Assembly (NCBI GenBank): GCA_965197495.1
Contig: OZ240210.1
Coordinates: 2,876,671 to 2,940,670 of the forward strand
Length of the DNA: 64,000 bases
Reading direction: 5' to 3'
DNA from: Candidatus Marinacidobacterales bacterium
Lineage (GTDB): Bacteria; Acidobacteriota; Vicinamibacteria; Marinacidobacterales; SMYC01
Every line of letters starts with the position of its first letter. Position 1 is the stretch's first letter. The position numbers were made by a program, and so were the translations under genes. Below, piece by piece: positions 6,063 to 62,421 of this stretch. The notes beneath the pieces were generated by a model, which saw only the letters and a program-made list of their open reading frames with translations, had not been told where the DNA came from and did no database searches.

Positions 6063-6497
6063 CGAATTCGAGGTTTGACCAATTCGAATTCCGCTATTCG
6101 CCTTCTCCTCAGACGCGATCTAGGCGTTAAGCGTCTTCTCATTGTCTGCGCGATTAAGCGCAAAAATGGACACGATAAGCCCCCAAATCGCCCCAAATTG
6201 CCCGTTGATGGCCTGTTTTGCTCTGTTTCTGATCGTTTCCAGCCAAGAATCGGAAGCTCCACTCGAGCCTGCCGACTGCGATAGCCGGAAAGGTGTTCCC
6301 GTCGACGAAACGTCCGCCGATGAGACGTAAAGCCTTTTGCAACAATGCGTAACGGCCGGAGCCGCCTCCGGAGGGTTTACGACACGGCCCTCTTTCAGGC
6401 GTCCAGGAGGTTGAGGTTTGCCGTATAGAAAAGCTGATTGAAGCAAATTCGATTCCGGCTCGAACGACCACCCGTCGATGATGCGTGCGTGGGCCAG
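6063..6497 (+). repeat. About 435-bp repeat C, copy 1; an inverted partner lies at 12812-13243
   Basis: The reverse complement of 12812-13243 aligns with this segment over its whole length at roughly 85-90% identity, with one indel of about 15 bp. Confidence 0.75.
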
Positions 6498-6705
6498 CAC
6501 GTGACAGAAAGTGACTCACGCCCGGCGCAGCTCGTTCGTAGCGCGCAAGGTGTCCAAGCTCGACATCGTCCAGGCTACGCTCGGGGTTCCGTTGTAGCGA
6601 CGCGGTATCGAGGAGATGGCGAAGCGCTTCGAGATCGGTGCACCCGAGCTCGAGGGCGTGGGCGACGGTCTCACGAAGCTTGTCGTATCCGTGCTTGCGC
6701 CCTCG

Positions 6706-7007
6706 TCCTGTGCCAAAACTCAGCCCTTTTGAAATAGACCATAAATCAGCAGCTTAGCGACTGGGCCAAGGGCCCTTAGGCTCTACAGTTACCCAAAACC
6801 CGCGGTCGACGTTCGAGAGCCGCGGCCGTTTCACCGAACGGCGGAGGACGGCGAGCTGCTGCCGAAGAGCGACATTGTCGAGAGCCAGCTCGCGACGAGC
6901 CTTGAAGACGGAGATGAGAGCGCGAACAAACGACGAAATCAAGCAGGCATGGTGCCGGCAGACTAATCAAGTTTGGGGCGCCCGGATGAATAAATAGAAG
7001 GCACAGG
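6706..7007 (-). mobile_element. 302-bp MITE-like element with termini GTCCTGTGCC...GGCACAGG; its left subterminal 70 bp equals the IS481-like IR, and it carries a 62-codon relic of a transposase N-terminus
   Basis: Near-identical copies lie at 17105-17413 and 18503-18788. The internal ORF reads MISSFVRALISVFKARRELALDNVALRQQLAVLRR, an HTH-type transposase N-terminus. Confidence 0.7.
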
Positions 7008-8041: not shown

Positions 8042-8172
8042 GCTTCTCGTGAAGACCCAGAAGGAGTCCCTTTGCGGAAAATCGTGTCCTGAACAACCAG
8101 AAGAGGACGGTGGCTTCTGTCCGTCTTACCGGAAAGCTCACTCTCGAAGGGGACCGTTTTATGGGAGTAAGG

Positions 8173-8535
8173 TTAGGTGACGTGAGTATCCAAGGCAACA
8201 TCAAACCACTTCGATCGCTCGTTGAGTCCCTTCAGGTTCGTGGGTCGTGGAATCGAAGTTGCTCCGGTTCTCGGAGTCGACGTTCCTTCCTCATCAGCAC
8301 CTCCTTCGCTTTTCGAAGAACAATTCTGAGCCTCTTCATCGCCGGGAAACGGGCCTGGAACCAGACGTTCGACCTCGCACAGCTCTCCGATCAGGCGAAG
8401 CACTTCGGAGCACGCCTGCGGGTAGTGCTCGCTGGCTTCATCGAACTTCCGTTTGACGTGCGCCCAGCAATGGGCGAGTCGAAGCTCGGGGGCATCGCGA
8501 TCACTCGCTGCTTTTCTGGTGTTGTGGATGGTCAC
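8173..8535 (-). pseudogene. IS66-family transposase (TnpC) internal/C-terminal fragment
   Basis: It carries the HCWAHVKRKFDEA motif characteristic of IS66 TnpC, and no full-length ORF is present. Confidence 0.6.
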
Positions 8536-11943: not shown

Positions 11944-12155
11944 CAACATATCTGGACTCCTCAATCAACACCTTTCTCAAAAAAGTCTTCCTCAGAGCTG
12001 CTCGTCCAAATCGGTGACGAGTGGGTCAGACTGCAAACATATCTACGGCCTCAGTGAGGAGCGTCTTGGGTGCTCCGGGCCATGACGGGAAATCCGCGCG
12101 CGAGGAGCCAATCACTTTGAGCGACCTCTGAGGGCCAGTGTTGCTATCGGCTTGA

Positions 12156-12217
12156 CCCCGTCCTGTGCCAAAACTCGGCCCTTTTGAAATAGACCATAAA
12201 TCAGCAGCTTAGTGTCT
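12156..12217 (+). repeat. Solo IS481-like terminal inverted repeat (62 bp) with no element body
   Basis: ccccgtcctgtgccaaaactcggcccttttgaaatagaccataaatcagcagcttagtgtct matches the IS481-like IR and is then followed by unrelated sequence. Confidence 0.7.
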
Positions 12218-12229
12218 ATGGTGCGCTCC

Positions 12230-12345
12230 CGTGAACGGCTTGGCGGTAGTAGACCCGCCGTCCCTTCTGTGCCGCGGCGATCGCGAGGCTGATCGCGAGA
12301 TGGGTCTTACCGACGCCGGGCGGTCCCAACAAAACGCTCGGGTGG
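12230..12345 (-). pseudogene. IstB-like (IS21 helper ATPase) P-loop fragment
   Basis: The minus-strand translation HPSVLLGPPGVGKTHLAISLAIAAAQKGRRVYYRQAVHG is a Walker A plus an IstB signature, with only about 38 codons present. Confidence 0.5.
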
Positions 12346-12640
12346 CCTCTTTTCCGACGCTGCACGGCCCGGTCAGCGCCCTCTCCCCAATCTGGCGCAA
12401 ACGTGGCACTCGAAAATCGAGATTAGAGACCAATACCGAAAATGAGGCCTGTTCAGGCCTTATAGCGCGTCTCTGGTGACACCTAATCTTGAAAAACCAC
12501 GCCAACCGCGCGGAAAATCTCATCCGTCTCTGCAGTGCCACAATTGGCCAGACTGGGTGGCGGATGGTGCAGGTTGGAGCTATCCGGTCTCGGCAAAAGG
12601 TGGTCCAGCTTTTGGCGGAAATCCTCAAACAGAAAAGCCA
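12340..12640 (+). repeat. About 300-bp repeat D; second copy at 24610-24910 and a partial copy at 30886-30935
   Basis: ctcgggtggcctcttttccg...gcgcaaacgtggcactcgaaaatcgagattagagac...ccaaccgcgcggaaaatctcatccgtctctgcagtgccacaattgg...ggtggtccagcttttggcg recurs at about 88%. Confidence 0.7.
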
Positions 12641-12811
12641 GTGGAGATTCAGGAGGTTTCGAGTTTCGCGCATTTATTGACTTTATTGACGCGTACACAG
12701 GTTTTGCGAAAAGGCTGTTTTACGCCCTCTCGGGTTTCAACCATGATGCCAATTTCGTTCCATCCTCTTCCCCTACAGTGATTTAACGGCCGCTGTCACG
12801 TACTGGTTCCC

Positions 12812-13243
12812 GCACGCATTATCGACGGGTGGTCGTTCGAGCCGGAATCGAAGTTGCTTCAATCAAATTTTCTATACGGCAATCTCAACCTCCTGGACGC
12901 TTGAAAGAGGGCCGTGTCGCAAACCCTCCGGAGGCGGCTCCGACCGTTACTCATTGTCGCAAAGGGCTTTACGTCTCATCAGCGAATGTTCGTCGACGGG
13001 AACATCTTTCCGGCTATCGCAGTCGGCAGGCTCGAGTGGAGCTTTCGGTTCTTGGCTGGAAACGATCAGAAACAGAGCTAAATAGGCCATTAACGTGCAA
13101 TTCGGGGCGATTTTGGAGCTTATCGTGTCGTTTTTCCACTTAATCGCGCAGACAATGAGAAGACGCTTAACGCCTAGATCGCGCCTGAGGAGAAGGCGAA
13201 TAGCGGAATTCGAATTGGCCAAACCTCGAATTCATCCAGCGGA
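12812..13243 (-). repeat. Repeat C copy 2, the inverted partner of 6063-6497
   Basis: This is the alignment described under 6063-6497. Confidence 0.75.
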
Positions 13244-15262: not shown

Positions 15263-15559
15263 CGCTGATGCTCAGAGTGCCGACTATAATAATGATGATG
15301 GACTCGCAACCGACCTCGCATCGCCCGACAGGGACCGCAACCCGCTGACCCGGGTCTCGTGCTGGGCGCGCGGGCCGAGGTCGCGGCGCCCATGTGCACA
15401 AGCGCCTGCTTACAAGTTTTTGGAATTGCGGGTCTTGAGTTCGTTTGTGTTCTTGGACACGACGGGTTCACGCGTGTGTCTGCCCGCTGCCGACGTGACT
15501 GATACAATGGGCCGATGCGACCCAACTCGCCGAGCTAGTAGCCAAGGACAATCGATTCA

Positions 15560-17023: not shown

Positions 17024-17104
17024 CCGGACGGCGGGGCGCGCCAGTTGGACGGAACGGATGGTCTGGAGGAGAGGTCTGCTCGGGGTCGCCTATCGCAGAA
17101 CCGC

Positions 17105-17413
17105 GTCCTGTGCCAAAACTCAGCCCTTTTGAAATAGACCATAAATCAGCAGCTTAGCGACTGGGCCAAGGGCCCTTAGGCTCTACAGTTACCCAAAACC
17201 CGCGGTCGACATTCGAGAGCCGCGGCCGTTTCACCGAACGGCGGAGGACGGCGAGCTGCTGCCGAAGAGCGACATTGTCGAGAGCCAGCTCGCGACGAGC
17301 CTTGAAGGCGGAGATGAGAGCGTGAACAAACGACGAAATCAAGCAGGCATGGTGCCGGCAGACCGGAGACTAATCAAGTTTGGGGCGCCCGGATGAATAA
17401 ATAGAAGGCACAG
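17105..17413 (-). mobile_element. MITE-like element, copy 2 (309 bp)
   Basis: It is over 97% identical to 6706-7007 and has the same embedded 62-codon ORF (17154-17342). Confidence 0.7.
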
Positions 17414-18337: not shown

Positions 18338-18400
18338 GCCCGTCGTGTCCAAAAACACAAACGAACTCAAGACCCACGCGCCGGGACGTTTCGGATTAGA
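18338..18400 (+). repeat. Short repeat A copy (cgtcgtgtccaaaaacacaaacgaactcaagacc...cgtttcggat)
   Basis: It is one of at least eight copies; the others are at 5662-5720, 15434-15466 (rc), 24323-24381, 33318-33375, 34010-34140 (rc, long form), 36803-36930 (long form) and 36962-37005. Confidence 0.7.
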
Positions 18401-18502
18401 GGTGTCTAGGCTTGGTTGTGCCTTCTATTTATTCATCCGCCAGCCCCATGGGTCGGAAGTCAGCCCTGCGGCGCGAAATACCCTGGATTCTGCGCGGATT
18501 CA

Positions 18503-18788
18503 TTTGAAATAGACCATAAATCAGCAGCTTAGCGACTGGGCCAAGGGCCCTTAGGCTCTACAGTTACCCAAAAACCCGCGGTCGACGTTCGAGAGCTGCG
18601 GCCGTTTCACCGAACGGCGGAGGACAGCGAGCTGCTGCCGAAGAGCGACATTGTCGAGAGCCAGCTCGCGACGAGCCTTGAAGGCGGAGATGAGAGCGCG
18701 AACAAACGACGAAATCAAGCAGGCATGGTGCCGGCAGACCGGAGACTAATCAAGTTTGGGGCCCGGATGAATAAATAGAAGGTACAGG
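18503..18788 (-). mobile_element. MITE-like element, copy 3, truncated at the left end; it lies next to an inverted fragment of the MITE right end at 18395-18440
   Basis: It aligns with 6728-7007, and ccttctatttattcatccgc at 18421 is the reverse complement of the MITE right end. Confidence 0.6.
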
Positions 18789-19526: not shown

Positions 19527-19616
19527 ACTTACGGCCCTTGGCCCGGCCGCAAACACGGACACTAAGCTGCTGATTTATGGTCTATTTAAGAGGGCCGAGT
19601 TTTGGCACAGGACGGG
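19527..19616 (-). repeat. Solo IS481-like terminal IR (about 90 bp) abutting the stop codon of the CotH gene
   Basis: ggcccttggcccggccgcaaacacggacactaagctgctgatttatggtctatttaagagggccgagttttggcacaggacggg is the IR, and no transposase lies to its left. Confidence 0.7.
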
Positions 19617-19621
19617 CTCGG

Positions 19622-22015
19622 TTAATCTCGTTCCCAAGTCCCGTATTCGTTCAGAGCACTCCATTCGTCGCCCCGCCGTGAACGTCCCTTGAGATTAGGA
19701 GAGAAAGGAACCGTCGAAACGGCTTCGCTGAAACTGTGTGCCGTGGGGTTCCGTGGGTCGCTTCCATCGAGGGTGTAGTAGACCTTTTCCGCTCCCGCCG
19801 GGCGACGGATGGTGATGCTGTCAGAAGCTCGCTCGAACCCCGGCGGGTCGATGGTAGGATAGTAACCATGGTTTCGAAGTGCCCGAATGAACTTTTCGAC
19901 ATTCCCGTCCATCAAGCCTAGAACGTAGTCCCGCGCTCGCTTCCAATGCACATCCCGCGTGCGGGGACGATTCTCCCGTCCAGGGGCTGCGTCGCCCCAC
20001 CGGGCCGACTCACAAAGCATCGCCGGCTCCACATAGTCCGCTAGCCTCCGAAAATTGGTTTGGTTTACATGGTCTGCAAGGGGGCCGCCATCGTAGCAAG
20101 CACGATAGACGTGATCCGCGAACTCCAGCCGGAACTCTGGGCTGTCCGCCAAAGCCATCCATAGTTGGTGTAACGCGGACGTTCCGCCGGACACGAAACT
20201 TGGCGGAACCCAAGCCCCCGCGTGCCCGTATTTATGAGAGTAGAGCCCGTAGGTTATCTCCGCATCCCAGCAGAAATACAGTCCGGCACCAGGAGGGTGA
20301 ATCCGAATCCCTCCGTACCAATTTTGCTTTCCCCAATCTCCCATGCCGGAAAACCAATTCAGCAGGATGTAGTCGCTGAACTGGGCCGTATTCAATAGGG
20401 TTTTCATCTCCTGGTACTTTGCGGGCTCCGAGAGATCATTGTCACGCGCATAACGGTAGACGGTGATATACCAGCGCGGGTGGTTCGGCTTGCCGACTAC
20501 GCCAGAATGGTTGATAGCAAACCAGTCAGCCGAGTCACCACCATAGTACGAAGCGAGAAAACGCCGGTCCGGACGCTCCACCGCGTTGTATACGCCCCAG
20601 TAAATCCCGTTCAGGTAGAGATGCACAAAAATGCCGCGCGCGGCGTTATCGCTCAAAGAAAGCTGCGAGTCCCGAACGTGTTGGTCGCGGACATAGACCG
20701 CCAACTCGCTGATATCGCCTCTTCTCGACCAGTTTTCTTGCCCACCTGCCCGCAGAACGATGGTGTTGAACTCCTTCACTGCAGATTCGGCATGGTGCAC
20801 GGCGCTCTCGAAAAAGGGGTATCTCAACATTCCCGGACCGAAGTCTTTGCTGAAGACTAGGCGGAACGATCGCTTTTCCTCGGGAAACGTCTGACTATGC
20901 GCTCTAATTCCGCAATCGACCTGGAAGCCCTCGAAGTCCGAAAACTTGCTCGGGTAGAGGAGCTCAACCGAGGCGGGACGGGTTGGTGGACCCTTATCAA
21001 TGTAGAGCCCGTAGCTCTCATTAAAGAGGTGGTCCCCATCCATGACGATGGAGAGGGTGGGAATCGATGTCAGTCCTTCCACGAACTCCAGCTGGTTGCT
21101 CGTATTCACAACATCGGGATCGATCTCGATGTCGAGATCTGCGTACGGAGCCATATTGGAGGAGCGAAACGGGGCCGGATAATCGAATGGCAGAGCCGCC
21201 TGCTCCTTCACCGTGGTCGGAAATATATAGGTATGGGTGTCGACGTTCGTGCTCCTCGCACCAGCTTTGTACGCTATGGCCCGAAGGACGGTCGTTTTAG
21301 CCACAAGAACCTTGTTGCCGACGATTCCATGACTCACGCTCGGCTTACTGCCGTCGGTGGTATAGACGATCGTTGCGCCGGGAGTGGCGGTGGTGAGGAT
21401 CACTTCGAAAGGGGTCTCATAGAAGCCGCGGTCGTGGCTGAACTTCGTATCGCCTACTGAGTGCGTCCGGCCGGTTCGGCGATGCCAATCATTGAAGAAC
21501 TCGACCGATTGCCCAACCGGTTGTGCAGGGGCGCTCGCAAGAAGAACCGGCTCTCCCCAAACCGGAACCAGTGACTGCCGATGCACCGCGCCCGAGGCGT
21601 CCAGCACAGGCCGTGCCGTGAAGCTCAGCGAGACCGTTCTCCCCTCCCACGGAGTGAGATCAATCATGCGGTCGTTCCAACGATTCCCCTCCTGTGCAGC
21701 AAGGGTCTCGCGAAACGCGCGGCTCCGCTTGTCATCGACGTCGATCTCGATCAGGAACTCTGTCTCGGGCAGACCGGCACTGGGTGTGCCTAATACGGCC
21801 ATCGAGAATTGGAGCACGGCGTTCTGCGGTACCTTTAGCGGGGACACCCACGTCGAGCCGTCCAACGCTGTTCGGGACTTTCCTTCCAACTCCACTTCCC
21901 TGGAAGGCTGAGAAGGATCGAGAAGGGAAACAGGGCGCGTTCTCGGTAAGTCGCTGCAAGCCGCTGCGGATGCTAGGAGCATCAGGACGACCAGCGTGTC
22001 GGTTCGTCTCCCCAT
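19622..22015 (-). CDS. CotH-family protein (CotH kinase-like fold) with a lipoprotein-type signal peptide and a chitobiase/hexosaminidase-C-like beta domain
   Basis: The likely start is MGRRTDTLVVLMLLASAAACSDL; the ORF-track start at 22417 adds 134 low-quality codons. It contains the CotH motifs VHLYLNGIYWGVYNAVE, FSDYILLNWFSGMGDWGKQNWYGGIRIHPPGAGLYFCWDAE and ATIVYTTDGSKPS. Confidence 0.65.
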   Translation of the reverse strand: MGRRTDTLVVLMLLASAAACSDLPRTRPVSLLDPSQPSREVELEGKSRTALDGSTWVSPLKVPQNAVLQFSMAVLGTPSAGLPETEFLIEIDVDDKRSRAFRETLAAQEGNRWNDRMIDLTPWEGRTVSLSFTARPVLDASGAVHRQSLVPVWGEPVLLASAPAQPVGQSVEFFNDWHRRTGRTHSVGDTKFSHDRGFYETPFEVILTTATPGATIVYTTDGSKPSVSHGIVGNKVLVAKTTVLRAIAYKAGARSTNVDTHTYIFPTTVKEQAALPFDYPAPFRSSNMAPYADLDIEIDPDVVNTSNQLEFVEGLTSIPTLSIVMDGDHLFNESYGLYIDKGPPTRPASVELLYPSKFSDFEGFQVDCGIRAHSQTFPEEKRSFRLVFSKDFGPGMLRYPFFESAVHHAESAVKEFNTIVLRAGGQENWSRRGDISELAVYVRDQHVRDSQLSLSDNAARGIFVHLYLNGIYWGVYNAVERPDRRFLASYYGGDSADWFAINHSGVVGKPNHPRWYITVYRYARDNDLSEPAKYQEMKTLLNTAQFSDYILLNWFSGMGDWGKQNWYGGIRIHPPGAGLYFCWDAEITYGLYSHKYGHAGAWVPPSFVSGGTSALHQLWMALADSPEFRLEFADHVYRACYDGGPLADHVNQTNFRRLADYVEPAMLCESARWGDAAPGRENRPRTRDVHWKRARDYVLGLMDGNVEKFIRALRNHGYYPTIDPPGFERASDSITIRRPAGAEKVYYTLDGSDPRNPTAHSFSEAVSTVPFSPNLKGRSRRGDEWSALNEYGTWERD

Positions 22016-22602
22016 CAAGTGTTGCGAGCTTATCAAACGCGCGTTTCTAAATGCTAGGCCAAGGGCGTGGCAAAGAGCAAAAAAGAGCGGGCTATTTTGC
22101 GAGTTTTGCAAGTCACTCCAAGAGGCCGGCCCTCGGAGGGGTTCCGTCGCATGCGCGGGGGAGATAGACCGGGTGGCGCCGACAGGCGCAAAGAAGCCAT
22201 AGGGGGCGTAACGTCCGACCGTTGTCGACGCCGGACGCGGCCCTGCTTGCTGGCCTCCCAGCTGGCCGGCGTGGACAGCGAGACCGCTGCTGTCGATCAA
22301 GATGTGCAACGGCGTCTTCTGCTTGTCCTGCGCGTACGGGGACCCCGAATCGCCGGCCACAACGTCACCCTCCCAGGGTATTGGTGTCACCTCGTTCGAA
22401 TGGGCGAGGATCTCCACGACCGCCTAGGGGCAGCCCTGGTGTTCAGAACAATAGGCCGGATATTCGAAAACAATCGCAAGAGCGAGCCTCTCCAACATTC
22501 ATAAGACGCCGGTGGCATCGTCAGGTCGACCGGTACGGAAAATCCGACGTGGCAGGTCTAAACCGCGCAATCAACGCTGGATCGACTTTTTGCGGAGCAC
22601 AG

Positions 22603-23582
22603 TTTACTGGGGCGTATATAACGCGGTGGAGCGTCCGGATCGGCGTTTTCTCGCTTCGTACTATGGTGGTGACTCGGCTGACTGGTTTGCTATCAACCAT
22701 TCCGGCGTAGTCGGCAAGTCGAACCACCCGCGCTGGTCTGTCACCATGTACCGTTATGCGCGTAAGCATGACCTCTCGGAGCCCGTAAAGTACCGGGAGA
22801 TGAAAACCCTATTGAATACAGCCCAGTTCAGCGACTACATCCTGCTGAATTGGTTTTCCGGCATGGGGGATTGGGGGCGAAAGAATTGGTACGGAGGGAT
22901 TCGGATTCACCCTCCCGGTGCCGGACTGTATTTCTGCTGGGATTCGGAGATGACCTACGGACTCCTCTATAATAAAGGGCACGCGGGGGCTTGGGTTCCG
23001 CCCGAGTTCGTGTCGGGCGGAACGTCCGTGCTACACCAACTATGGATGGCCTTGGCGGATAGCCCAGAGTTCCGGCTGGAGTTCGCGGATCGCGTCTACC
23101 GCGCCTGCTACAATGGCGGTCCCCTCGCGGACCATGTAAACCAAACCAATTTTCGAAAGCTAGCGGACTACGTGGAAGCGGCGATGTTTTGTGAGTCTGC
23201 CCGCTGGGGCGACGCGGGCCACGGAAGGGAGAATCGTCCCAGCACGCGGGATGTGCATTGGAAGCGGGCGCGGGACTATGTTCTAGATTTGATGGACGGA
23301 AACGTCGAAAGGTTCATTCGAGCACTTCGGGACCATGATTACTATCCCACGCTCGACCCGCCGGTGTTCGAACGAGCTTCTAACAGCATCACTATCCGAC
23401 GCCCGGTGGGAGCGGAAAGGGTCTACTACACCCTTGATGGAAGTGACCCACGAAACTCCACGGCACACAGTTTCAGCGAAGCCGTTTCGACGGTTCCTTT
23501 CTCTCCCAATCTCAAGGGACGTTCAAGGCGTGGCGACGAGTGGAGTGCATTGAACGAATACGAGACTTGGGAACGAGATTAA
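22603..23582 (+). pseudogene. Inverted partial paralog (C-terminal about 326 codons) of the CotH gene; no start codon and the 5' region is unrelated
   Basis: It is about 90% aa-identical to the C-terminal third of 19622-22015 (YWGVYNAVERPDRRFLASYYGG ... NEYETWERD*), and its stop is likewise followed by CCGAGCC plus an IS481-like IR. Confidence 0.7.
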
Positions 23583-23590
23583 CCGAGCCG

Positions 23591-23765
23591 GTCCTGTGCC
23601 AAAACTCGGCCCTTTTGAAATAGACCACAAATCAGCAGCTTAGTGTCTGTGTTTGCGACCGAGCCAAGGGGCGTGGGCCTTACAATCGTCTGGCCAAAGG
23701 GTGTTATCTTCAGATCTATGATGACGTACCACGTGCCATTCCTACTGCTCGTTCTGGCTGGTGAC
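23591..23765 (+). repeat. IS481-like left end (IR plus the first about 25 codons of the transposase), with no body beyond about 23765
   Basis: gtcctgtgccaaaactcggcccttttgaaatagaccacaaatcagcagcttag...ATGATGACGTACCACGTGCCATTCCTACTGCTCGTTCTGGCTGG is followed by unrelated sequence. Confidence 0.65.
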
Positions 23766-24609
23766 CTGACCTGTGCTCCGCAAAAAGTCGATCCGGCGTT
23801 GATTGCGCGTTTTAGACCTGCCATGCTCGGCTGCTTTGTGCCGGTCGACCCGACGACGCCACCTGCGTCTTAGGAACGAGGAGAGGCTCGCTCTTGCAAC
23901 TGTTTTCCAATATCCGGTCTATTGTTCTGGATGTCAATGGCAACCGAAAATTGCACACTTTTGTGGAGGGCTTCCACGCGAAGGTGACGCTCTTGCGGTG
24001 GTTGCGCTTGTCGGTGTTGGGTTGGGCGGAGGGAGCGTAGCGATCGGAGTCCAACCCAACACGCGTCGCAGATTCGCAGGACATGGCTGTCAGGACATGG
24101 CTGTCAGGGCGCGGGTCTCTCGCGACCTTGATCGGACGCGGACCGTATCAGGTTCTGGTGCTCCCGCATCCGGTTGTGCCTTCCATTTATTCATCCGCGC
24201 GCACGGAACTTGATTAGTCTCAGGCTGTGGCCGGGGAAGAACCGCAGGCTATTGTTCTGGCGCCAGGGCTGACCCTAGGCGGTGGTGGAGATCCTCGCCT
24301 ATTCGAACGAGGTGACACCAATGCCGTCCTGTCCAAAAACACAAACGAACTCGAGACTGGCGCGCCGGGCCGTTTCGATCGTCATCGCCCCGTAGCGAGC
24401 CCCAGATCTGGGGCGTGTCGGAGGCGATGTCGGCGATTCGGGTTCCCCGTACGCGCAGGGAAAACACCGTCCAGAAACGGGATGCCATGCTCCCGGGCGA
24501 AGACCCTGGATCTGGGCCTGGGGCAAGATGGAAATCCAGTAGGCCAGGGCCGCACCTGGACCAGAACTGCTAGGCGAGCTACGCTGCGGTATCCCCGGCC
24601 TCGATTCTG

Positions 24610-24910
24610 GGCCTCTCGGGTGGCCTCTTTTCCGCCGCCGCACAGCCCGGTCAGCGCCCGTTCTCCCCTTTAGCGCAAACGTGGCACTCGAAAATCGAGA
24701 TTAGAGACGAATACCGAAAATGAGGCTCGTTCGGCCTTTCTAGCGCGTCTCTGGTGCCACCTACCCCTGCAAAACCCCGCCAACCGCGCGGAAAATCTCA
24801 TCCGTCTCTGCAGTGCCACAATTGGGCAGACTGGGTGGCGGATGGTGCAGGTTGGCGCTATCCGGTCTCGGCAAAAGGTGGTCCAGCTTTTGGCGTAAAT
24901 CCTCAGAAAG
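24610..24910 (+). repeat. Repeat D, copy 2
   Basis: This is the alignment described under 12340-12640. Confidence 0.7.
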
Positions 24911-24955
24911 AAGATGATCGATCACGGAGGTGTCACGAGTAGCACGTGACGGGTT

Positions 24956-29205: not shown

Positions 29206-29452
29206 GTCGTGCCGATGTCGTATTGCGCCTGGTAGCGCTCGATGTTCCGCCATAAATCGGCAAGCCCGCAGTGCAAGCCAACGGGCGTGGTGCTGTTGTG
29301 AATCTCGGTAATTTGACAGCAATGGCACCGCCCGCGTGGGCGGAGGTCATCGGGGAGTGACCGAAATCGTTCGTTCACTCGAAAGTACCCCATGGACTCA
29401 TCTCCTCGGCTCCACGCCCGCGTGCGGCGTCTCACCGCGCGGCAGGCACGCA

Positions 29453-30885
29453 CCCCGTCCTGTGCCAAAACTCGGCCCTTTTGAAATAGGCCATAAATCA
29501 GCAGCTTAGTGTCTGTGTTTGCGACCGGACCAAGGGCCGTAGGCTTTACAATCGTCTGGCCCGAGGGTGTTATCTTCAGCTCCATGATGACGTACCACGT
29601 GCAATTCCTACTGCTCGTTCTAGCTGGCTGGGTCAACCGCCAGCAGCAGGATGTGATCGACTACCAGCAAGAGGAGAACCGTGTGCTCCGAGCCGGGCTT
29701 CGGGGCAAGCGTCTCAGGCTCTCGGACGACGAGCGGCGCAGGCTCGCGGTCAAGGCCCAGGCTTTGGGCCGCGAGGCGCTGGCCCAGATTGCGTCCGTTG
29801 CCACACCCGCTACGCTTCTGCGTTGGTACCGCTGCCTCATCGCAGCCAAGTACGATGGCAGCAAGAACCGGAGTCCAGGCCGACCTCCGACGGCGAAGGA
29901 CATCCGTGAGCTCATTGTGCGCGTGGCGCGGGAGAACCCGACGTGGGGATATACGCGCCTGCGAGGCGCACTCAAGAACCTAGGACATGAACTCGGACGC
30001 AACACTATCAAGAGGATCCTCGCCGAGCACGGTATCGCTCCTGCGCCGGAGCGGGGCAAGAGCATGTCGTGGAGCACCTTCATCAAGGCTCATTGGGGCG
30101 CCATCGCTGCGACAGACCTGTTCACCGTCGAGGTTGTGAACCCGTTCGGGCTCGTCCGCTACCATGTCCTGTTTGTCATCGATATCGCCACTCGCTGCGT
30201 GTGCATCGGTGGGATAACGTCGGACCCCAACGGGGAGTGGATGAAGCAGGTAGCAAGAAACCTCACTGACATGTGGGATGGTTTCCTCCTTGGCAAGCGA
30301 TACCTCATCCACGACCGGGACCCGCTATTCACCGAGGCAGTACGTGGGCTGTTGAGAGATTCAGGCGTGAAGCCCCTTCGCCTTCCCGCTAATAGTCCGA
30401 ACCTGAACGCATATGCGGAAAGATTCGTTCTCTCCATACGTCGAGAGTGTCTCGACCGCTTCGTACCTCTCAGTGAGCGACACCTGCGCACAGCGGTAAC
30501 CGAATACGTAGTGCACTATCACACAGAACGGAACCACCAAGGTCTCGGCAACGAGCTCCTCACACCTCTGCCGGCAAGCGCGAATGACGCTGGCCCCATC
30601 GTGTCGCGAGAGCGACTTGGGGGCATTCTCAACTACTACTACCGTGCCGCGTAGATGGTCGCCGGCGACGGTAGCCCCTCGGCGGGCTCGACCGGCGTAG
30701 CGTGGAACAGCTTCAGGAACATGCTTCGATATTCGCTCTCGACTAGGTGGTCATCTGCATGGTGACGACCCGCCCGCCCAAGACGATTGTAAAGCCCACG
30801 GCCCTTGGCCCGGTCGCAAACACAGACACTAAGTTGCTGATTTATGGCCTATTTCAAAAGGGCCGAGTTTTGGCACAGGACGGGG
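29453..30885 (+). mobile_element. IS481-like element copy 2, intact (1433 bp), with about 110-bp terminal IRs beginning CCCCGTCCTGTGCC
   Basis: It has a complete single transposase ORF, and its IRs are near-perfect inverted copies over about 110 bp (e.g. ...cagcagcttagtgtctgtgtttgcgaccgg / rc of ...ccggtcgcaaacacagacactaagttgctg). Confidence 0.85.
29578..30654 (+). CDS. IS481-family DDE transposase with an integrase core domain
   Basis: It has an HTH N-terminus ([25 protein letters not shown]), a DDE core (LFVIDIATR...IHDRD...FTE) and an rve C-terminus ([17 protein letters not shown]). The start may be 29509 or the MMTYH Met at 29578. Confidence 0.85.
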
Positions 30886-31013
30886 TGGCGGATGGTGCAG
30901 GTTGGAGCTATCCGGTCTCGGCTGGAAACTCTAAACTGAAGTTCCTGGCTGAAAAAGCCAAGATCCGGTGTTGATCCAATGAGATAGTTGGAATCAATGG
31001 TGCTGGCTTCTGT

Positions 31014-32993
31014 CTACACGGTGATACCTTTGAGCAGGTCGTAGGCTCTCTGCTGTTTCGAGTCCGGAGTTGTCGTGACATCGAAGGTGGGCTCGTCGGG
31101 TCCGGCTTCCGGTCGCCGACATTTGTTTCGGACGATGTTGCTGAGAAGGCGCAGCAGCGTGCGGAAGCTGGAAGCTCGACTCCCATCGTCAAGCTTCTTG
31201 GTTTGTATCTTGCGCAGGGCGGCCTCGGAGCGCTTCGCCGGAGCGACGGGGTCACGCTCGGCCTTCGCCTGCTGCTCCTCGTCAGAGAATACTAGCGGGC
31301 GCCAAACCTCCATCATGTGCCACAGGACGTAGTAGGCCAGCATGCACAAGAAGATGTGCGCCCGGACTCGGTTTTCGCGCCGGTGACGAATCGGCCGCAC
31401 CTTTAGGTCCATGCTCTTGAAGGAACGAAACGCCCTCTCGACCTGGGTCAGCAACTTGTAGCTGCGCACTGTGTCGTCGGTTTTCATCCGCTGCTCAGCA
31501 AGACTGGTGCGGATCACGTAGATGCCGTCAAGGGCAGCTTCCGTAGTGACCTTTGTGTCGTCGATTTCGAAGCTAAAGCGGTCGTCGCGAATGTCCAGCT
31601 TGAAGTGCTTGCCGACTTTGTACTTGTTGAGAACTCTGCCTACCCGCACACCGATTTTATCTTTACCATGCAGCTGACCCCGCCCGATCCGTTGGCGAAT
31701 CCCTCCGAACTGCTTAGCGATCGTCCCCATGTGTCGCTTCCACCGCTGGAGCCGTTTGTTGGCGAGCTCAGAGTTGCCGTTGGCGAGGCGCGAGGCGTCG
31801 GCATCCATCGTTGTCTCGTCTAGCTCGAAGTCGAAACCGTCGTCACGGATGTCGAGCCTGTAGTACCTGCCGACCTTGTACTTGTTGAGGAGCTTTTTCA
31901 CTGCAGCACGGATGTCCTCCTTGCCCTGCAAACGGCGCCGCTCGACCATCCGACAAACTTTCTCCAGCTCCTTGCAGGTCGCTTCGAGCAGAGCACGGCG
32001 CTTGTGACGCCGCCTCTCGGCCAGCTCCGGATTGCGGCAAGCGACCAGCCTCTCGTTGGGGAAATCCGGGTGCGTCACCTCAAACAGATTCCGCTCGTCG
32101 AATAGCCCCATCTGGAGCACCCCATCGTTGATGAGCTTGCGAATCGGTTCGGGACGCAGAGCGGTAATCCAGTCGACACCGTCCATCTCCCGCAACTCGT
32201 CGATCTGGGTCTGGGTGATCATTCCGCGGTCGCCCACCATCACAAACTGCTCGATGCCGAAGCGCTCTTGCACCTTTTCTACCTGAGGCAACAGCGTTTT
32301 GGGATCGCCCGTGTTGCCCTCAAAGACCGATACCGACACGGGGATGCCGCGTTCGTTGGTCAGCAGGCCGTAGTTGATCTGCAGCTTGCCTTTCTTGCCG
32401 TCACGGTCGTATCCGAGGCGGGCGATCGGACAACTCACCCCCTCGAAGTAGCTTGAGGTTAGGTCATAGAGCGCCAGGCCGTCGTTTTGGAGATGGCGCG
32501 CCGCGAGTTTTTTTTCGATGACCTCCTGGCGTTTGAGAACCCAGTCCATGGCGGCATAGAGATCGTCTTCGCGGGCATCGCTCACCCCCAGGATTTCGGG
32601 CAGTGTGGTTGTGTGCCACCACTGGCTAGTCGCCAGCTTCGACTGCGGTTCGAGGATCCGGGCGACTACCATGGCCACGACCAAATCCCGCTCTGGTGAG
32701 TGTCGAGAACCAACGAGCTTTTCGAAACCGAGCTGTCTCATGGCGCTGAGCACCGCGTCGACGTGGCCATGGTGCAGGGAGCCGTTCTCGACGATTTTGA
32801 AGGCGACTTCAACCGAGACGAGCTTTTCCCCTTTGAGAATGCGTCGGATGGCGTCGACTGCGTCCATGGGCAATTTGGACAAGTTAGCGAGCGTGCGCTT
32901 GCGGACGTTTCCGCCCACCCGATAGGACTCACGCAGCAGGACCGCGGGGGTAGAGTTGCGATTGGGGATGATGTGGGTATGCATGCCCACCAT
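31014..32993 (-). CDS. IS1634-family (IS4 superfamily) transposase, 659 aa
   Basis: It has the N-terminus MHTHIIPNRNSTPAVLLRESYRVGGNVRKRTLANL, a central YDLTSSYFEG...MVGDRGM and a C-terminal YKLLTQVERAFRSFKSMDLKVRPIRHRRENRVRAHIFLCMLAYYV; element ends were not defined. Confidence 0.8.
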   Translation of the reverse strand: MVGMHTHIIPNRNSTPAVLLRESYRVGGNVRKRTLANLSKLPMDAVDAIRRILKGEKLVSVEVAFKIVENGSLHHGHVDAVLSAMRQLGFEKLVGSRHSPERDLVVAMVVARILEPQSKLATSQWWHTTTLPEILGVSDAREDDLYAAMDWVLKRQEVIEKKLAARHLQNDGLALYDLTSSYFEGVSCPIARLGYDRDGKKGKLQINYGLLTNERGIPVSVSVFEGNTGDPKTLLPQVEKVQERFGIEQFVMVGDRGMITQTQIDELREMDGVDWITALRPEPIRKLINDGVLQMGLFDERNLFEVTHPDFPNERLVACRNPELAERRRHKRRALLEATCKELEKVCRMVERRRLQGKEDIRAAVKKLLNKYKVGRYYRLDIRDDGFDFELDETTMDADASRLANGNSELANKRLQRWKRHMGTIAKQFGGIRQRIGRGQLHGKDKIGVRVGRVLNKYKVGKHFKLDIRDDRFSFEIDDTKVTTEAALDGIYVIRTSLAEQRMKTDDTVRSYKLLTQVERAFRSFKSMDLKVRPIRHRRENRVRAHIFLCMLAYYVLWHMMEVWRPLVFSDEEQQAKAERDPVAPAKRSEAALRKIQTKKLDDGSRASSFRTLLRLLSNIVRNKCRRPEAGPDEPTFDVTTTPDSKQQRAYDLLKGITV

Positions 32994-33440
32994 AATAGCC
33001 TATGTATCAATGTGTATCAAATCATAAAAGGCTTTAGACATGCCTACATATTGCAACCCAAAATTAGCCTCTCGGCGTCCCTAAAGACGCGTAATCATTG
33101 GGGATTCACACTGTCAGTGGGTTCATTCGACCAAGGAACTTCAGTCTAAAACAAAGAAGTGACTCGACCTCGGCGGGGACCTTCGGTGTTATCTAAAATG
33201 GCTGGTGCTCGACGATTGAATGCCGGTCCAGGTCGGACTGTACCCTTCGCAGATGATGGACATGAGAGGGGCAATTTTTACAGTTTTTACAGTATCTCCC
33301 AGGAGGCGGTGTGCGCTCCCGTCGTGTCCAAAAACACAAACGAACTCAAGCCCCGCGCACCGGGCCTTCGGTCACTACCCTCCCCATTCTCCGAAACAAG
33401 AACTCTGAATCCGTAGACCTGAGATGCCCGTCCCTGTGAA

Positions 33441-34009: not shown

Positions 34010-34140
34010 AGCTGGATCGGCGTCCTCATGACCGAGGATTCTAGCTTCCATTGGCCAACCAAGCGTATACACGTCTATTCCGAAACAGCCCGGCGAGCCG
34101 CTCTTGAGTTCGTTTGTATTTTTGGACACGACGGGCCACC
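34010..34140 (-). repeat. Repeat A long form (about 130 bp), inverted relative to the copy at 36803-36930
   Basis: The reverse complement reads ccgtcgtgtccaaaaatacaaacgaactcaagagcggctcgccgggctgtttcggaatagacgtgtatacgcttggttggccaatggaagctagaatcctcggtcatgaggacgccgatccagc, which is about 88% identical to 36803-36930. Confidence 0.7.
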
Positions 34141-34181: not shown

Positions 34182-36824
34182 TTAGAAGTTGAGGAGGGCC
34201 TTCACGCCCAAGGTTCGCGGTGGGTTGGTCAGGAAGAAGATCCGGGCGCGGGTTCCGCGCTCGCGGTCGAACGACAGAAGAGCCCGCTCGTCGGTCAGGT
34301 TGTTGATGTACAACGACACGTCCCACTTCTCGCGACGAACGCCGACGCGCAGGTTGAGGAAGTTGTAGGCCGGCAGCTTGGGATCGTATGTGAAGGTATC
34401 CTGCGTAAGCGGGGCACCGATGGTGTTGGCTCCGAAAGAGAGCAGGTCCAACGTGCCGAGGTCCTGGTCGCCGACTTGGGTAAAGCGGTCGCCGACGTGC
34501 TGGTAAGTAGCGGTCACGTAGGGCACCGACTCCCCCGTCTGCCACTGGTAGGTGGCTGCGGCGGCAAGCTGGAACCGGGGCACGGTCGGCAGCAGCCGCC
34601 CACCCACGATTCCCGTTGCCGAGGTCGGCTCCACGGTGGACTGCAGTTTCGAATCGTTGATGCTCGTGGAGATGGCAAAGTCGAAATTGCTGCTCGGCGC
34701 GAGCTCGAAATCCAACTCGACACCGGTGCTGCGGGAGTCGGGGACGTTGAAGATGAGGCGGGAGGAACAGGATCCGGCGGTCACCGTCGCCTGGAGGTCG
34801 CTGATGTCCATGTAATACACGGCCACGTTCACGGAACCGCGGTTGTTCAGAAGCCTGGACTTGGTGCCGACCTCGTAGTTCCAGGTCGTCTCGTCCTCCC
34901 AGTTCTCCCGGCCGCCGAAAGTGGCGCGGTCCTCGGGAGTGCACAAAGGCACGTTGAGCGGGTCGTTGATGCCGCCGAGCCGGAAGCCCTTCGAGACTTG
35001 GCCGTTGAGGATGGTCTGGTCACTCAGATCGTAGCTGAGAATCACGCGCGGCGCCACGCCGTTGGCTGTGGTGGAGCCGGGCTGCGACACCAGGGAGACA
35101 CCGTTGTTGTCGTTACCGAAGATACCGTCGAAGCTCTGCTCCTTGTCCTCCGAGAAACGGTAGAAGCGCAGGCCGCCGGTGAGGCGGAACCGGTCGGTTA
35201 TGGACACGGTCGCTTCACCGAAGAGCGCGAACTGGTTGAGCTTGTAGCCGAGGTCTGAGAAGAACAGGCTGTCCTTCGGCGCCCGCAGTCCTTGCGTGGG
35301 GATCCCGGTCAGATCCTCGAAGCCGGTCACCGGCAGGTTCTGGCCGTAGTCGCGGTCGGTGTAGCTGTAGAAGCCGCCGCCCACCCACTGGACGCGGTCG
35401 CTGTCGCCCGACAGGCGTAGCTCCTGCGTGAAGACGTTCGCGACGGTGGCGTCAAACAGCGGCGTGTCGAGGGTGTACACCTCCTCCGGCAGGCCGATGC
35501 TCCCGCCCGTGATGCTGGCGCCCAGCGCGGTGGTGTCGCGTATCACCAGAACGTCGCGATAGATATAGGAGGTGATCGAAGTGAGCACGACATTACCGAA
35601 GTCGTAATGGAAATTCACGTCGGCGAGCACGAAGTCATCGGTGAAGTCTTCCTGGAGCTGGACGAACTGCTCGCGCTCACCAAACGTGACGGCGGGCCGG
35701 GTGGTGGTGAACGGGTTCGCCAGGATGTTGAACTCGTCGACGCGGTTCCAGCCGTCCGTCTCCATCCTCTGATAGATGATGCGCGGGGTGATCGCGAACT
35801 GATCGTTGGGTGCTATCGTGACTGCTACCCGCCCCCCGTAGCGTTTGCCGGTGTTGACGTTGTCGTCGATGCTGAGGTCCGGCCGAACCTCGCCGATGAA
35901 GCCGGGGACCCGGGTGTAGTAACCCACGACGCGGACGGCAGCGGTGTCGCTGATGGGCGCGTTGAAGCCCAACTTGACGTTGCCTCCCGGGCTACCAGTA
36001 TTCGTCACGCCACCGCCAAACTCGGCAAACCCTTCGGTCACACCCAGCTCCGGGTAGTTGCTGATGTAACGGACCGTTCCCGAGAGGGAGCCGGAGCCGA
36101 ACAGCGTTCCCTGCGGGCCCCGCAGCACCTCGATGCGGTTCACGTCGAACAGGTCGAGGTCGGGCGTGAACAGTGAGAGGGAGATCACGGACTCGTCCAG
36201 GTACACACCGACCTGTTCCTTGACCCCCGGCTGATCGCGCACGATCTGGCCGGCGGAGATACCTCGCATCGCGACCTGGCTCTGGCCGGGGCCCAGGCTT
36301 TGTACGGTGAACCCGGCTACGTTGGCAGCCACGTCTTCGATGGTCTGAGCGCCCCGGTCGCGCAGGACATCCTCGGTCGGTGCCGCCACCGAAAACGGAA
36401 CGTCGTGCACCAACTCCTCGCGCTTGAGGGAGGTGACTGTGACCTGTTCCGCGAACGGCGCGACCGCGAGGATGACGTCCACGGTCAGGATTGTGCCGGC
36501 TTCAAGGGTGAGGTCCCTTCGGGTGTGCTCGGCAAAGCCCTGGAGCGTTACTGTCAGGGAGTAGATGCCGGGGGCCAGGCTAATGGAGTAGCTGCCGTCG
36601 CTTGAGGTTGTGGCCGCACGTCGGGCGTTGGTTGCCTGGTTAGTGATCGTAACCGCAGCGCCCGGCACGAGAGCACCGAGTGTATCGCTCACTTTGCCTA
36701 TGATACGTCCCTCCGAAGACTGGGAGTAGCCGGGCAGGCCGTACAGCACGGCAGCCAGTACCACGAAGCTAAGAAACGAAAAGCGGCCCATACCTGATGT
36801 CACCCCGTCGTGTCCAAAACACAA
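34182..36824 (-). CDS. TonB-dependent outer-membrane receptor with an N-terminal carboxypeptidase-regulatory-like (CarbopepD_reg) domain
   Basis: It has a signal peptide, a SEGRIIGKVSDTLGALVPGAAVTITNQATNARRAATTSSDGSYSISLAPGIYSLTV domain, plug-domain motifs and an 880-aa barrel with a C-terminal ...GVKALLNF. Confidence 0.8.
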   Translation of the reverse strand: MCFGHDGVTSGMGRFSFLSFVVLAAVLYGLPGYSQSSEGRIIGKVSDTLGALVPGAAVTITNQATNARRAATTSSDGSYSISLAPGIYSLTVTLQGFAEHTRRDLTLEAGTILTVDVILAVAPFAEQVTVTSLKREELVHDVPFSVAAPTEDVLRDRGAQTIEDVAANVAGFTVQSLGPGQSQVAMRGISAGQIVRDQPGVKEQVGVYLDESVISLSLFTPDLDLFDVNRIEVLRGPQGTLFGSGSLSGTVRYISNYPELGVTEGFAEFGGGVTNTGSPGGNVKLGFNAPISDTAAVRVVGYYTRVPGFIGEVRPDLSIDDNVNTGKRYGGRVAVTIAPNDQFAITPRIIYQRMETDGWNRVDEFNILANPFTTTRPAVTFGEREQFVQLQEDFTDDFVLADVNFHYDFGNVVLTSITSYIYRDVLVIRDTTALGASITGGSIGLPEEVYTLDTPLFDATVANVFTQELRLSGDSDRVQWVGGGFYSYTDRDYGQNLPVTGFEDLTGIPTQGLRAPKDSLFFSDLGYKLNQFALFGEATVSITDRFRLTGGLRFYRFSEDKEQSFDGIFGNDNNGVSLVSQPGSTTANGVAPRVILSYDLSDQTILNGQVSKGFRLGGINDPLNVPLCTPEDRATFGGRENWEDETTWNYEVGTKSRLLNNRGSVNVAVYYMDISDLQATVTAGSCSSRLIFNVPDSRSTGVELDFELAPSSNFDFAISTSINDSKLQSTVEPTSATGIVGGRLLPTVPRFQLAAAATYQWQTGESVPYVTATYQHVGDRFTQVGDQDLGTLDLLSFGANTIGAPLTQDTFTYDPKLPAYNFLNLRVGVRREKWDVSLYINNLTDERALLSFDRERGTRARIFFLTNPPRTLGVKALLNF

Positions 36825-36930
36825 ACGAACTCAAGACCCACGCGCCGAGACGTTTCGGATGAGACATGTCTACGCTTGGTTCGCCAATGGAAGCTAGAAC
36901 CCTCGGTCATGAGCACGCCGATCCAGCCCT
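36803..36930 (+). repeat. Repeat A long form, plus a second short copy at 36962-37005
   Basis: This is the alignment described under 34010-34140. Confidence 0.7.
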
Positions 36931-37026
36931 TGACAGGGGCATCTTCGTGTACACACTGGCGCGTCGTGTCCAAAAACACAAACGAACTCAAGACCCGCCT
37001 GGGCTGCAACAAGCAGGTGCAGATGG

Positions 37027-37730: not shown

Positions 37731-37880
37731 CGCGGATGAATAAATAGAAGGCACAGGTCATCTGCATGGTGACGACCCGCCCGCCCAAGACGATTGTAAA
37801 GCCCACAGCCCTTGGCCCGGTCGCAAACACAGACACGAAGTTGCTGATTTATGGCCTATTTCAAAAAAGGCCGAGTTTTG
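37731..37880 (+). repeat. MITE right-end motif (gcggatgaataaatagaaggcacagg) fused to an IS481-like right IR whose last about 7 bp are replaced by the IS5 insertion
   Basis: The sequence tcatctgcatggtgacgacccgcccgcccaagacgattgtaaagcccac...ggccgagttttggc stops 7 bp short of the IR end, exactly where the IS5 IR begins. Confidence 0.6.
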
Positions 37881-38969
37881 GCGGCGTTGTTGCACCGCTC
37901 TGGCTGAGAGCGAAATCCGCCTATGGTGGTGGCCGAGGTATGTTCGAGCATGAAGTATCCCAAGCGCTGCCAGTACAAGCACGCGAAGCAGAAGAAGTAC
38001 CACGTTCGCAACTGGGCGGAATACAACGAAGGGCTGCGCCGCCGGGGCGATTTGACAGTCTGGTTTGACGAGGAGGCAATCGCGAACTGGAAGGCCGACA
38101 AGACCGGTGAGCCTGGCGGTCAACGGGTCTATTCAGACATGGCGATTGAAACGGGCCTGGTTGTCCGGATGGTGTACAAGCTCGCCTACCGACAAACCGA
38201 AGGCTTCTTGCACTCGATCGCCTCGCTTCTCGGGCTCGGTATCGAGATCCCGGACTACTCGACGTTGTGTCGGCGCTCGAGGTTGCTCCGCAAGAAGCTG
38301 CGGATTCTGAAAGCCGCGAGCACTCAACCCATCCACCTGATGATCGATAGCACGGGCTTGAGGATTCATGTTGGAAACGCTCGCAAACCGCCAAAGCAGC
38401 GCGCATGGCGCAAGTTGCACATCGCCGTTGATCGCGAGACCGGCAACATTGTTGCGTCCGAACTGACGGCGTCACGAGCTCGCGACGCAACCCGAGTCCC
38501 CGCTTTGCTAACACAGATTCAAGCACCTCTAGTGTCGGTGGCGGCGGACAGTGCATACGACAAGGAAGCGGTCTACGAAGCCATCGAAGCGCACAGTCCT
38601 GGACGAAAGACGCGCGTGGTGATTCCGCCGCAACGAAACGCGACGCTCAGTCAGAATTCGAACACCGCCATGCAGGAGCGCGATCGCCATATTCGCGCAA
38701 TCGAAAGACACGGCCGACGTGAATGGTACAAGCTCTCAGGCTACACCAAGCGAAGCATGGTGGAGAACGCGGTCTATCGTTACAAGGCGATCATCGGGCC
38801 GGAGATGCGGGCTCGAACGTTGGCGAGGCAACGAGTTGAACACCGAATTGGGTGCGAGATACTCAACAAGATGGCTGCGCTCGGGATGCCCGATACGTAC
38901 TGCGCCGGGTGACTCTGCAACCGGCACAGGGAGGTCAGCGATTTGCTCCGGGCCGTGCAACAACGCCGC
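37881..38969 (+). mobile_element. IS5-family insertion sequence (about 1.09 kb) with 15-bp IRs GCGGCGTTGTTGCAC, inserted into the IS481-like IR relic
   Basis: The left IR at 37881-37895 matches the right IR at 38955-38969 (gtgcaacaacgccgc), and the element contains a single 329-aa transposase ORF. Confidence 0.7.
37923..38912 (+). CDS. IS5-family (IS903-group-like) DDE transposase
   Basis: It has KKYHVRNWAEYNEGLRRRGDLTVWF, LMIDSTGLRIH and VAADSAYDKEAVYEAI ... RSMVENAVYRYKAIIG. Confidence 0.8.
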   Translation: MVVAEVCSSMKYPKRCQYKHAKQKKYHVRNWAEYNEGLRRRGDLTVWFDEEAIANWKADKTGEPGGQRVYSDMAIETGLVVRMVYKLAYRQTEGFLHSIASLLGLGIEIPDYSTLCRRSRLLRKKLRILKAASTQPIHLMIDSTGLRIHVGNARKPPKQRAWRKLHIAVDRETGNIVASELTASRARDATRVPALLTQIQAPLVSVAADSAYDKEAVYEAIEAHSPGRKTRVVIPPQRNATLSQNSNTAMQERDRHIRAIERHGRREWYKLSGYTKRSMVENAVYRYKAIIGPEMRARTLARQRVEHRIGCEILNKMAALGMPDTYCAG

Positions 38970-61081: not shown

Positions 61082-61092
61082 GGTCAAGATAT

Positions 61093-62177: not shown

Positions 62178-62421
62178 CGAAGGACTGGAATACCTATCCG
62201 ACAGGAAGGGTCGATTCAACCGGTCCGCGGGTCCGCGGATCCTGCTGACCCGGTTGTCGTTCGAGTATCTTGACCCTACGGGAATGTGAAGTCGCTCGGG
62301 GCGTAGAACGGTGTTGCCCTCGAGGTTGCCGGTCTTCTGGGTTGCTGAGGTGAAGGCCTCTGTTTCCAAGAAGAGCCCCGCCTTCGTCGGACGTGTTTCG
62401 ATGTGACTACGGCAGGTAACT

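Follow-up and report, generated by a model that had tools for sequence, protein, structure and literature searches.

An insertion sequence with long inverted repeats in Candidatus Marinacidobacterales: an uncurated transposase clade, a probably rebuilt right end and insertions without target-site duplications

A 64,000-nucleotide stretch of a Candidatus Marinacidobacterales genome (contig OZ240210.1; the whole stretch is referred to below as the window) harbours two full copies of an insertion sequence (IS) with inverted repeats (IRs) of about 105 bp, together with isolated ends of the same element. An initial annotation of this region had called the element IS481-like and had reported solo IRs, non-autonomous derivatives and the lack of a target-site duplication (TSD). 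The locus raises the questions of which family the element belongs to, how it acquired such long IRs and how its copies came to lie between flanks that carry no TSD.

Judged from its sequence, the copy referred to here as copy 2 is an intact element. Its IRs (29451-29570 and 30768-30887) match over 120 nt with 93% identity and contain a core of 107 nt with 97.2% identity, the IR proper measuring ~102-107 nt, and it carries a single open reading frame (ORF) of 356 aa. This agrees with the initial annotation, in which copy 2 was intact and had near-perfect IRs of about 110 bp. The bounds first drawn for the two copies, 29453-30885 and 3727-5157, located the elements correctly but not their ends. 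Comparison of the two window copies with 24 full-length copies of related genomes (n = 26) revealed that the outermost 3 nt (CCC/GGG in copy 2) vary from copy to copy, while the remaining IR is ~97% conserved. Where a flank is also present without the IS, the shared sequence includes these 3 outer bases and ends before CGT. The clearest of these unoccupied sites is found by comparing window positions 8120-8180 with locus L040, the flank being 99.78% identical over 2.7 kb. Furthermore, a recently moved relative, present at three sites and 99.5% identical, starts and ends precisely at CGT...ACG. The outer-base variation, the unoccupied sites and this relative together place the true termini at CGTCC...GGACG, so that the IS proper is 1,427 bp long and spans 29456-30882 in copy 2 (+ strand; termini CGTCCTGTGCC...GGCACAGGACG) and 3730-5156 in copy 1 (+ strand). 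In copy 2 the left IR occupies 29456-29557 (+ strand) and the right IR 30781-30882 (- strand). IR positions 49 and 86 separate left from right IRs in most copies, with exceptions in some subfamilies, which indicates that left and right IRs are now evolving independently. Neither a scan for sigma-70 promoters nor folding of the element's 5'UTR produced a signal.

The transposase gene (29584-30654, + strand) codes for a protein with an N-terminal coiled region, an HTH_32/HTH_21 part and a DDE core (D178, D244, E279). Pfam matches are HTH_32, HTH_21 and the C-terminal integrase-core domain rve_3. In an alignment of 12 clade members the three catalytic residues are invariant and the D-E spacing is 35 residues. 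The length of 356 aa is close to that of thousands of homologues (~357 aa) in soil, sediment and marine bacteria. Among the curated families the IS481 model (NF033577) scored best, with 100.1 bits against a cut-off of 224, compared to 81 bits for IS3 (NF033516, cut-off 160) and 49.7 bits for IS630 (NF033545, cut-off 100). Six other clade members also remained below the cut-offs; the whole clade scores 80-110 bits with IS481 and 65-88 bits with IS3, and one member scores higher with IS3 than with IS481. The IS1634 and IS256 transposases of the same window, used as controls, clear their own NCBIfam cut-offs easily. The nearest plasmid-borne relatives share 36-42% identity and bear only the PGAP name 'integrase core domain-containing protein'.

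As in the IS481 family, one ORF of 356 aa combines HTH and DDE (rve) parts and there is no programmed frameshift. However, the termini are CGT...ACG in ~40 clade members, with TGT (or GGT) at position 6, whereas the IRs of IS481 and IS3 elements start with TGT (10.1101/2022.12.17.520857), and TSDs of IS481 elements, which measure 2-15 bp and mostly 6 bp (PMC10045372), have no counterpart here. With a score under half of the cut-off, CGT ends and no TSD, membership of IS481 was not supported and the earlier label IS481-like appears only loosely right. The score and the presence of a single ORF, rather than two overlapping ORFs joined by a -1 frameshift, do not support membership of IS3; the score, flanks that are not TA and the failure of a CG-duplication model (see below) do not support that of IS630/Tc1-mariner. 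By the curated models the element is therefore assigned to a clade within the IS3/IS481 DDE superfamily that is so far unclassified, a clade which may have named members in ISfinder and which probably works like the IS3 and IS481 families. It could be argued that the element is a true IS481 member with ordinary transposition, and that all its TSDs were lost by inter-copy recombination, adjacent deletions and drift. IS481 is indeed the best-scoring family and the genomes concerned are IS-rich and visibly rearranged at IS ends, but the low score, the member that prefers the IS3 model and the CGT ends do not agree with this explanation, which is regarded as unlikely also in view of the flank analysis described below.

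The origin of the long IRs can be approached through more distant relatives. Elements with 50-67% identity were found in Myxococcota, Bryobacterales, Vicinamibacterales, Planctomycetota, Gammaproteobacteria and many metagenomes. These elements are 1.17-1.25 kb long (some up to 1.4 kb), have IRs of 12-28 bp with the tip motif CGTnnTGTGCCAAAACTCGGCC, and have a stop codon that abuts the right IR at a distance of ~30 bp from the outer tip on that side, so that the stop codon is directly followed by GGTCGGCCGAGTTTTGGCACA..ACG. A second clade member in the window (61073-62284, - strand), 54% identical at the amino acid level, shares this ancestral build. It is 1,212 bp long, has 22-bp IRs (TTCCCGTAGGGTCAAGATAYTC) and a stop codon beside the right IR, and is frameshifted near codon 35, in the N-terminal part; its flanks, TTCC on one side and GGAA on the other, contain no TSD. 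As the relatives at 50-67% identity carry only IRs of 12-28 bp, the long IR is specific to the lineage.

Locus L032, a 2.8-kb contig of a metagenome-assembled genome (MAG) in a putative Gemmatimonadota bin, is particularly informative. Its protein is 87% identical to that of copy 2, yet its IR is only 12 nt long. The left 130 nt of copy 2 (tip and 5'UTR) align end to end with the left end of L032, while the right ends of the two elements share the tip only. The left IR of copy 2 thus corresponds to the ancestral tip and the 5'UTR of the transposase gene. The right end is an inverted copy of the element's own left 107 nt, with weaker similarity on to ~140 nt, running inward to ~30748 and including a degenerate start codon (ATGCAGATGACCACCTAG, minus strand). 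Directly after the stop codon of copy 2, at 30652-30675 (+ strand; TAGATGGTCGCCGGCG...), a probable relic of the ancestral short right IR is found; only its inner part, ~16 nt, is still recognisable by similarity to the relatives. The long IR would thus have arisen within the Marinacidobacterales lineage by copying of the left end onto the right. It is proposed that the ancestral element was ~1.2 kb long, with IRs of 12-28 bp, the tip CGTnnTGTGCCAAAACTCGGCC and a stop codon abutting the right IR, that the old right IR decayed in the Marinacidobacterales lineage, and that its place was taken by the left 107 nt, copied in inverted orientation (the copy at first comprised ~140 nt, from the tip through the 5'UTR to the start codon), giving the element of 1,427 bp with its ~105-bp IRs. 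One possible route for the copying is that the left end of an adjacent inverted copy was taken into use.

Besides copy 2, the window contains a second full copy, one internal fragment, four end fragments and three copies of a miniature inverted-repeat element (MITE), in addition to the second clade member. Copy 1 is a transposase pseudogene which is 98.7% identical to copy 2. The initial annotation had described it as over 98% identical and broken by two 1-bp deletions, and both deletions indeed lie within the ORF, opposite copy-2 positions 30031 and 30498. Copy 1 also has a 1-bp insertion after copy-2 position 30705, and its longest remaining ORF on the + strand is 3783-4412. A 5' fragment of about 90% identity had been placed at 3140-3505. 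A fragment is present there, but it comprises 3217-3503 (+ strand), is 94.4% identical to IS nt 163-448 and is an old internal piece without IR, the segment 3140-3216 having no similarity to the element. The solo IRs reported at 12156-12217 and 19527-19616 are as described: the former (12159-12220, + strand) represents the outer ~62 nt, within a match of 66 nt at 97% (12155-12220), and the latter (19530-19613, - strand) lies within a match of 88 nt at 93% (19530-19616). The piece at 23591-23765, described as an IR plus 25 codons, is a left-end fragment (23590-23761, + strand) with IR and 5'UTR, the match (23588-23761) including ~15 codons rather than 25. The supposed solo IR at 37758-37880 proved to be a right-end piece (37756-37882, + strand; IS nt 1299-1424) from which the outermost 11 nt are missing and which is abutted by the last 25 nt of a 302-bp MITE (37732-37757). 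Two of the end fragments, at 19530-19613 and 23590-23761, form the edges of an inverted duplication of 1,078 bp (19531-20604 and 22603-23674, 90% identity), which holds the IS end and the 3' part of a CotH-domain gene; the ORFs at this duplication are 19622-22417 and 22512-23582. The same CotH-domain gene end is present without the IS in loci L012 and L037.

The three MITE copies of the window (M1, 6704-7006; M2, 17104-17413; M3, 18503-18788, which lacks the outer 27 nt of the left end; all + strand) belong to a ~302-bp form. They match the IS end over 63 nt at 92%, or ~100 nt if a 12-nt gap is allowed, whereas the right end of M1 consists only of GGCACAG(G). A 378-bp form with 76-nt IRs occurs at L001 5799-6179, and a second MITE, 316 bp long, includes 165 nt from the left side of the IS together with a right IR of 35 nt. 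None of these elements (302/378 bp and 316 bp) contains an ORF, and their terminal repeats match the IS. Further copies occur in loci L001, L003, L031 and L038. As in the parent IS, no TSD was found at the MITEs. The initial annotation held that the element mobilises non-autonomous derivatives; derivatives with shared ends do exist, but mobilisation was overstated, as the shared ends only suggest that the IS transposase may move them. If it did, the short right ends of the 302-bp and 316-bp MITEs imply that long IRs are not needed for spread.

The window also contains further features. An IS1634-family transposase gene (31014-32993, - strand) lies immediately right of copy 2 and an IS256-family transposase gene (109-1317, - strand) is located at the window start. 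Between the IS256-type element and the IS fragment lies a gene (1888-2736, + strand) with a full-length match to Nmad3 (nucleotide modification associated domain 3; E = 8e-76). A family of short repeats (~40-125 bp, both orientations), unrelated to the IS, is found at 5659-5717, 15428-15466, 18338-18418, 24324-24377, 33318-33365, 34011-34138 and 36804-36998, several copies bracketing a TonB-dependent receptor gene (34182-36824). In addition, there is an inverted pair of 444 bp (6064-6507 and 12793-13233, 92%) and a direct pair of 300 bp (12337-12634 and 24615-24912, 91%), and a 37-bp piece of the 300-bp repeat makes up the sequence immediately right of copy 2 (30886-30922).

When one genome per species was scanned, more than 542 loci that encode relatives were recovered. 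Among the best 80 of these, at least eight Candidatus Marinacidobacterales genomes are represented, by as many as 10 loci per genome; full-length copies number 24, at 92-98.6% identity. The closest relatives (92-99% at the nucleotide level) are all found in Candidatus Marinacidobacterales MAGs, several of them chromosome or megabase contigs. A literature search on this host order returned nothing. Several junctions recur between genomes. The right junction of copy 2 is also found in L020 and L024, in assemblies of other genomes; the left junction of copy 1 recurs in L008 and L040, the right flank being a different one in each of these two loci and in the window; and the flank of the fragments ending at 19616 and 23588 recurs in L012 and L037. 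In L040 the IS directly meets the sequence at window position 8150; in the window itself these two points are 3 kb apart. Insertion of the long-IR IS into copies of the IS256-like element was seen in other genomes.

It has to be considered whether solo IRs and hybrid ends are assembly artefacts of collapsed or chimeric repeats, a concern already raised in the initial annotation. The recurrence of identical junctions in independent assemblies (L020/L024, L008/L040, L012/L037), several of them chromosome-level records, shows that the solo ends do not stem from assembly collapse, and the fragments in the window have diverged to 87-97% identity where collapsed repeats would be identical. An artefact is thus highly improbable. 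The proposal of repeated IS-IS recombination or deletion, in contrast, fits the finding that breakpoints between genomes lie precisely at IS ends. These breakpoints are consistent with deletion mediated by the IS, with recombination between copies and perhaps with inversion via the long IRs. Of the four junctions common to different genomes for which both sides were typed, two show the IS in opposite orientations, the same flank meeting the right IS end in one genome and the left end in another (L008 4300 versus L021 2873; window 30882 and L020 1660 versus L024 2873). Such opposite-end junctions could have arisen if the IS core was inverted in place between its long IRs, or if the IS inserted independently at one site. 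The hybrid IRs expected from in-place inversion are absent at IR marker positions 49 and 86, and this inversion is put forward as a possibility only.

The lack of TSDs noted at both full copies was confirmed, and comparison of flanks for cryptic TSDs extended it to the relatives. No TSD was present in the 26 full copies (exact repeats, end offsets 0-8, k = 2-10), and in 32 local elements no imperfect repeat of 8-32 bp was found, the observed values being equal to the mismatched-pair control. Diverse relatives anchored on CGT...ACG, mostly single-copy and from many phyla, also lacked TSDs (0/34 at k >= 3), as did five recently moved copies of two elements, one of which is the relative that is 99.5% identical across three sites. 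As far as the compared sequences go, the absence of TSDs extends beyond local scrambling to the transposase clade as a whole, and low-copy relatives that moved recently are no exception. That TSDs are frequently missing because of recombination or adjacent deletion is well documented (PMC11708052; 10.1101/2022.12.17.520857). Such events surely contribute in these IS-rich genomes and are the basis of the idea, introduced above, of a true IS481 member stripped of its TSDs. They do not, however, easily explain the absence of TSDs in low-copy, recently moved relatives, and the counts of 0/32 local elements, 0/34 relatives and no TSD in five recent copies speak against a secondary loss.

The flanks do share a consensus. 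This consensus is inverted-symmetric, sGAYCC-IS-GGRTCs, and reads s-G-A-Y-C-C/G towards either end; it holds at 121 local ends and at 68 ends of diverse relatives. Given the consensus, the two flanks of one copy are independent of each other. Such symmetry allows no stagger greater than zero. Three specific models were rejected. A Tc1-like duplication of a CG dinucleotide is contradicted by the 99.8%-identical empty site in the window (8140-8156), which has no CG, and by most paralogous empty sites, which have none either. Copy-specific palindromic targets showed a small excess only, which is due to nested copies, the sides being independent given the consensus. Mimicry of the element's own tip by the target was discarded because the flanks do not co-vary with the tip. 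Searches for a filled/empty pair with both flanks contiguous found none; searches for reciprocal partner junctions, with duplication or deletion allowed, yielded nothing usable, the sole match being two junctions, from different genomes, that are separated by 24 nt within an IS256-like element; and no strain-level empty site emerged when window proteins or transposase variants were looked up in the assembly index.

The clade might integrate by an unusual geometry that intrinsically produces no duplication, for example by blunt or 3'-staggered transfer at a loosely palindromic site, or by single-end, IR-targeted insertion followed by host repair, as described for the targeted insertion of IS911. 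The family-wide absence of TSDs and the inverted-symmetric consensus on both sides agree with such a geometry. Metagenome contigs L083 (391-1612) and L084 (212-1433) carry clade members of ~80% identity at an identical right junction, with right flanks that are 100% identical for at least 1.4 kb and unrelated left flanks, which may point to strong site choice or to insertion next to ends already present. Insertions at or beside the ends of related elements were also observed in L006 and in the window at 37732-37757. On the other hand, at unoccupied paralogous sites the partner half-site is absent directly after the junction, and flanks that do not co-vary with the tip are hard to reconcile with it. 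To our knowledge, no DDE/rve transposase has TSD-less integration as its normal pathway. An intrinsically duplication-free geometry is therefore seen as possible, with the balance leaning somewhat against it.

Taken together, it is likely that this element, a real IS and ordinary in kind, is a genuine lineage-specific IS of Marinacidobacterales which belongs to an uncurated clade, has a rebuilt right end, later spread and decayed, and integrates without TSD. Its clade of single-ORF DDE (rve-type) transposases would sit between the curated IS481 and IS3 families. Transposition would occur by DDE strand transfer, as the catalytic triad and the family relationship suggest, and probably via a copied-out circle as in IS3-type relatives. 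Integration would leave no target duplication, each end coming to lie beside the favoured half-site 5'-sGAYC(C/G)-3' (written in the direction of that end). After the rebuilding of its right end the element would have multiplied to many copies per genome and given rise to, or come to share ends with, at least two kinds of non-autonomous element. Later decay and rearrangement would then have left behind copy 1 with its frameshifts, the internal piece, the isolated ends and the hybrid junctions seen in the window.

A broader proposal, that this abundant uncurated DDE/rve clade normally integrates without TSD beside GAYC(C/G) half-sites and that the Marinacidobacterales element is its long-IR derivative, is put forward tentatively and must be considered rather doubtful. 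If it is true, the strand-transfer geometry (blunt, 3'-staggered or single-ended) is one that is undescribed for this superfamily, and a family of DDE elements may lack target duplications as a rule. The element also offers what may be a natural example of the origin of a very long IR, one end and the 5'UTR having been copied onto the other. The clade is very common in metagenomes, yet the curated models leave its members as 'integrase core domain protein'; the CGT...ACG termini, the tip motif and the missing TSD would permit their annotation as IS. Moreover, breakpoints between closely related genomes of Marinacidobacterales are marked by the element and its remnants, which implies that it contributes to rearrangement of the host genomes.

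Several known systems resemble the element in part. IS911 is known for IR-targeted insertion. TSD-less IS movements elsewhere accompany large rearrangements, according to one report (PMC11708052), and as here involve copies without TSD at junctions that coincide with deletions or duplications; the 1,078-bp inverted duplication bounded by IS ends in the window is a similar case. Those movements, however, are exceptions for elements that otherwise duplicate their target, whereas here no TSD was found in any member examined.

Some eukaryotic Tc1-mariner members (Tc3 and the IR-DR elements) also have very long IRs. With IS630/Tc1-mariner transposases (NF033545; Sleeping Beauty, 5cr4) there is a weak similarity around the second D and the E, and the termini of the element are invariantly flanked by a palindromic dinucleotide-like CG, recalling the TA of Tc1. 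The score of 50 versus 100 bits sets the element apart, and duplication of a CG target is contradicted by the empty site at 8140-8156. The MITEs found here resemble bacterial IS-derived MITEs in being small ORF-less elements that have the tip and as much as 165 nt of the left end in common with the IS; they differ in lacking TSDs, and the 302-bp form terminates with no more than 8 nt of the tip motif. The IS3 family has a two-ORF frameshift, a 3-5-bp TSD and TG...CA ends, none of which is seen in the element, but shares a related DDE core and an N-terminal coiled/HTH region, and the copy-out-paste-in transposition of IS3 is the mechanism presumed for the superfamily. From the IS481 family the element is distinguished by its CGT...ACG termini, with TGT 5 nt further in, its ~105-bp IRs, the missing TSD and the low score, while the two have in common a single ORF with an HTH followed by a DDE(35)E rve-type core, a length of 1.0-1.4 kb and a conserved TGT near the ends.
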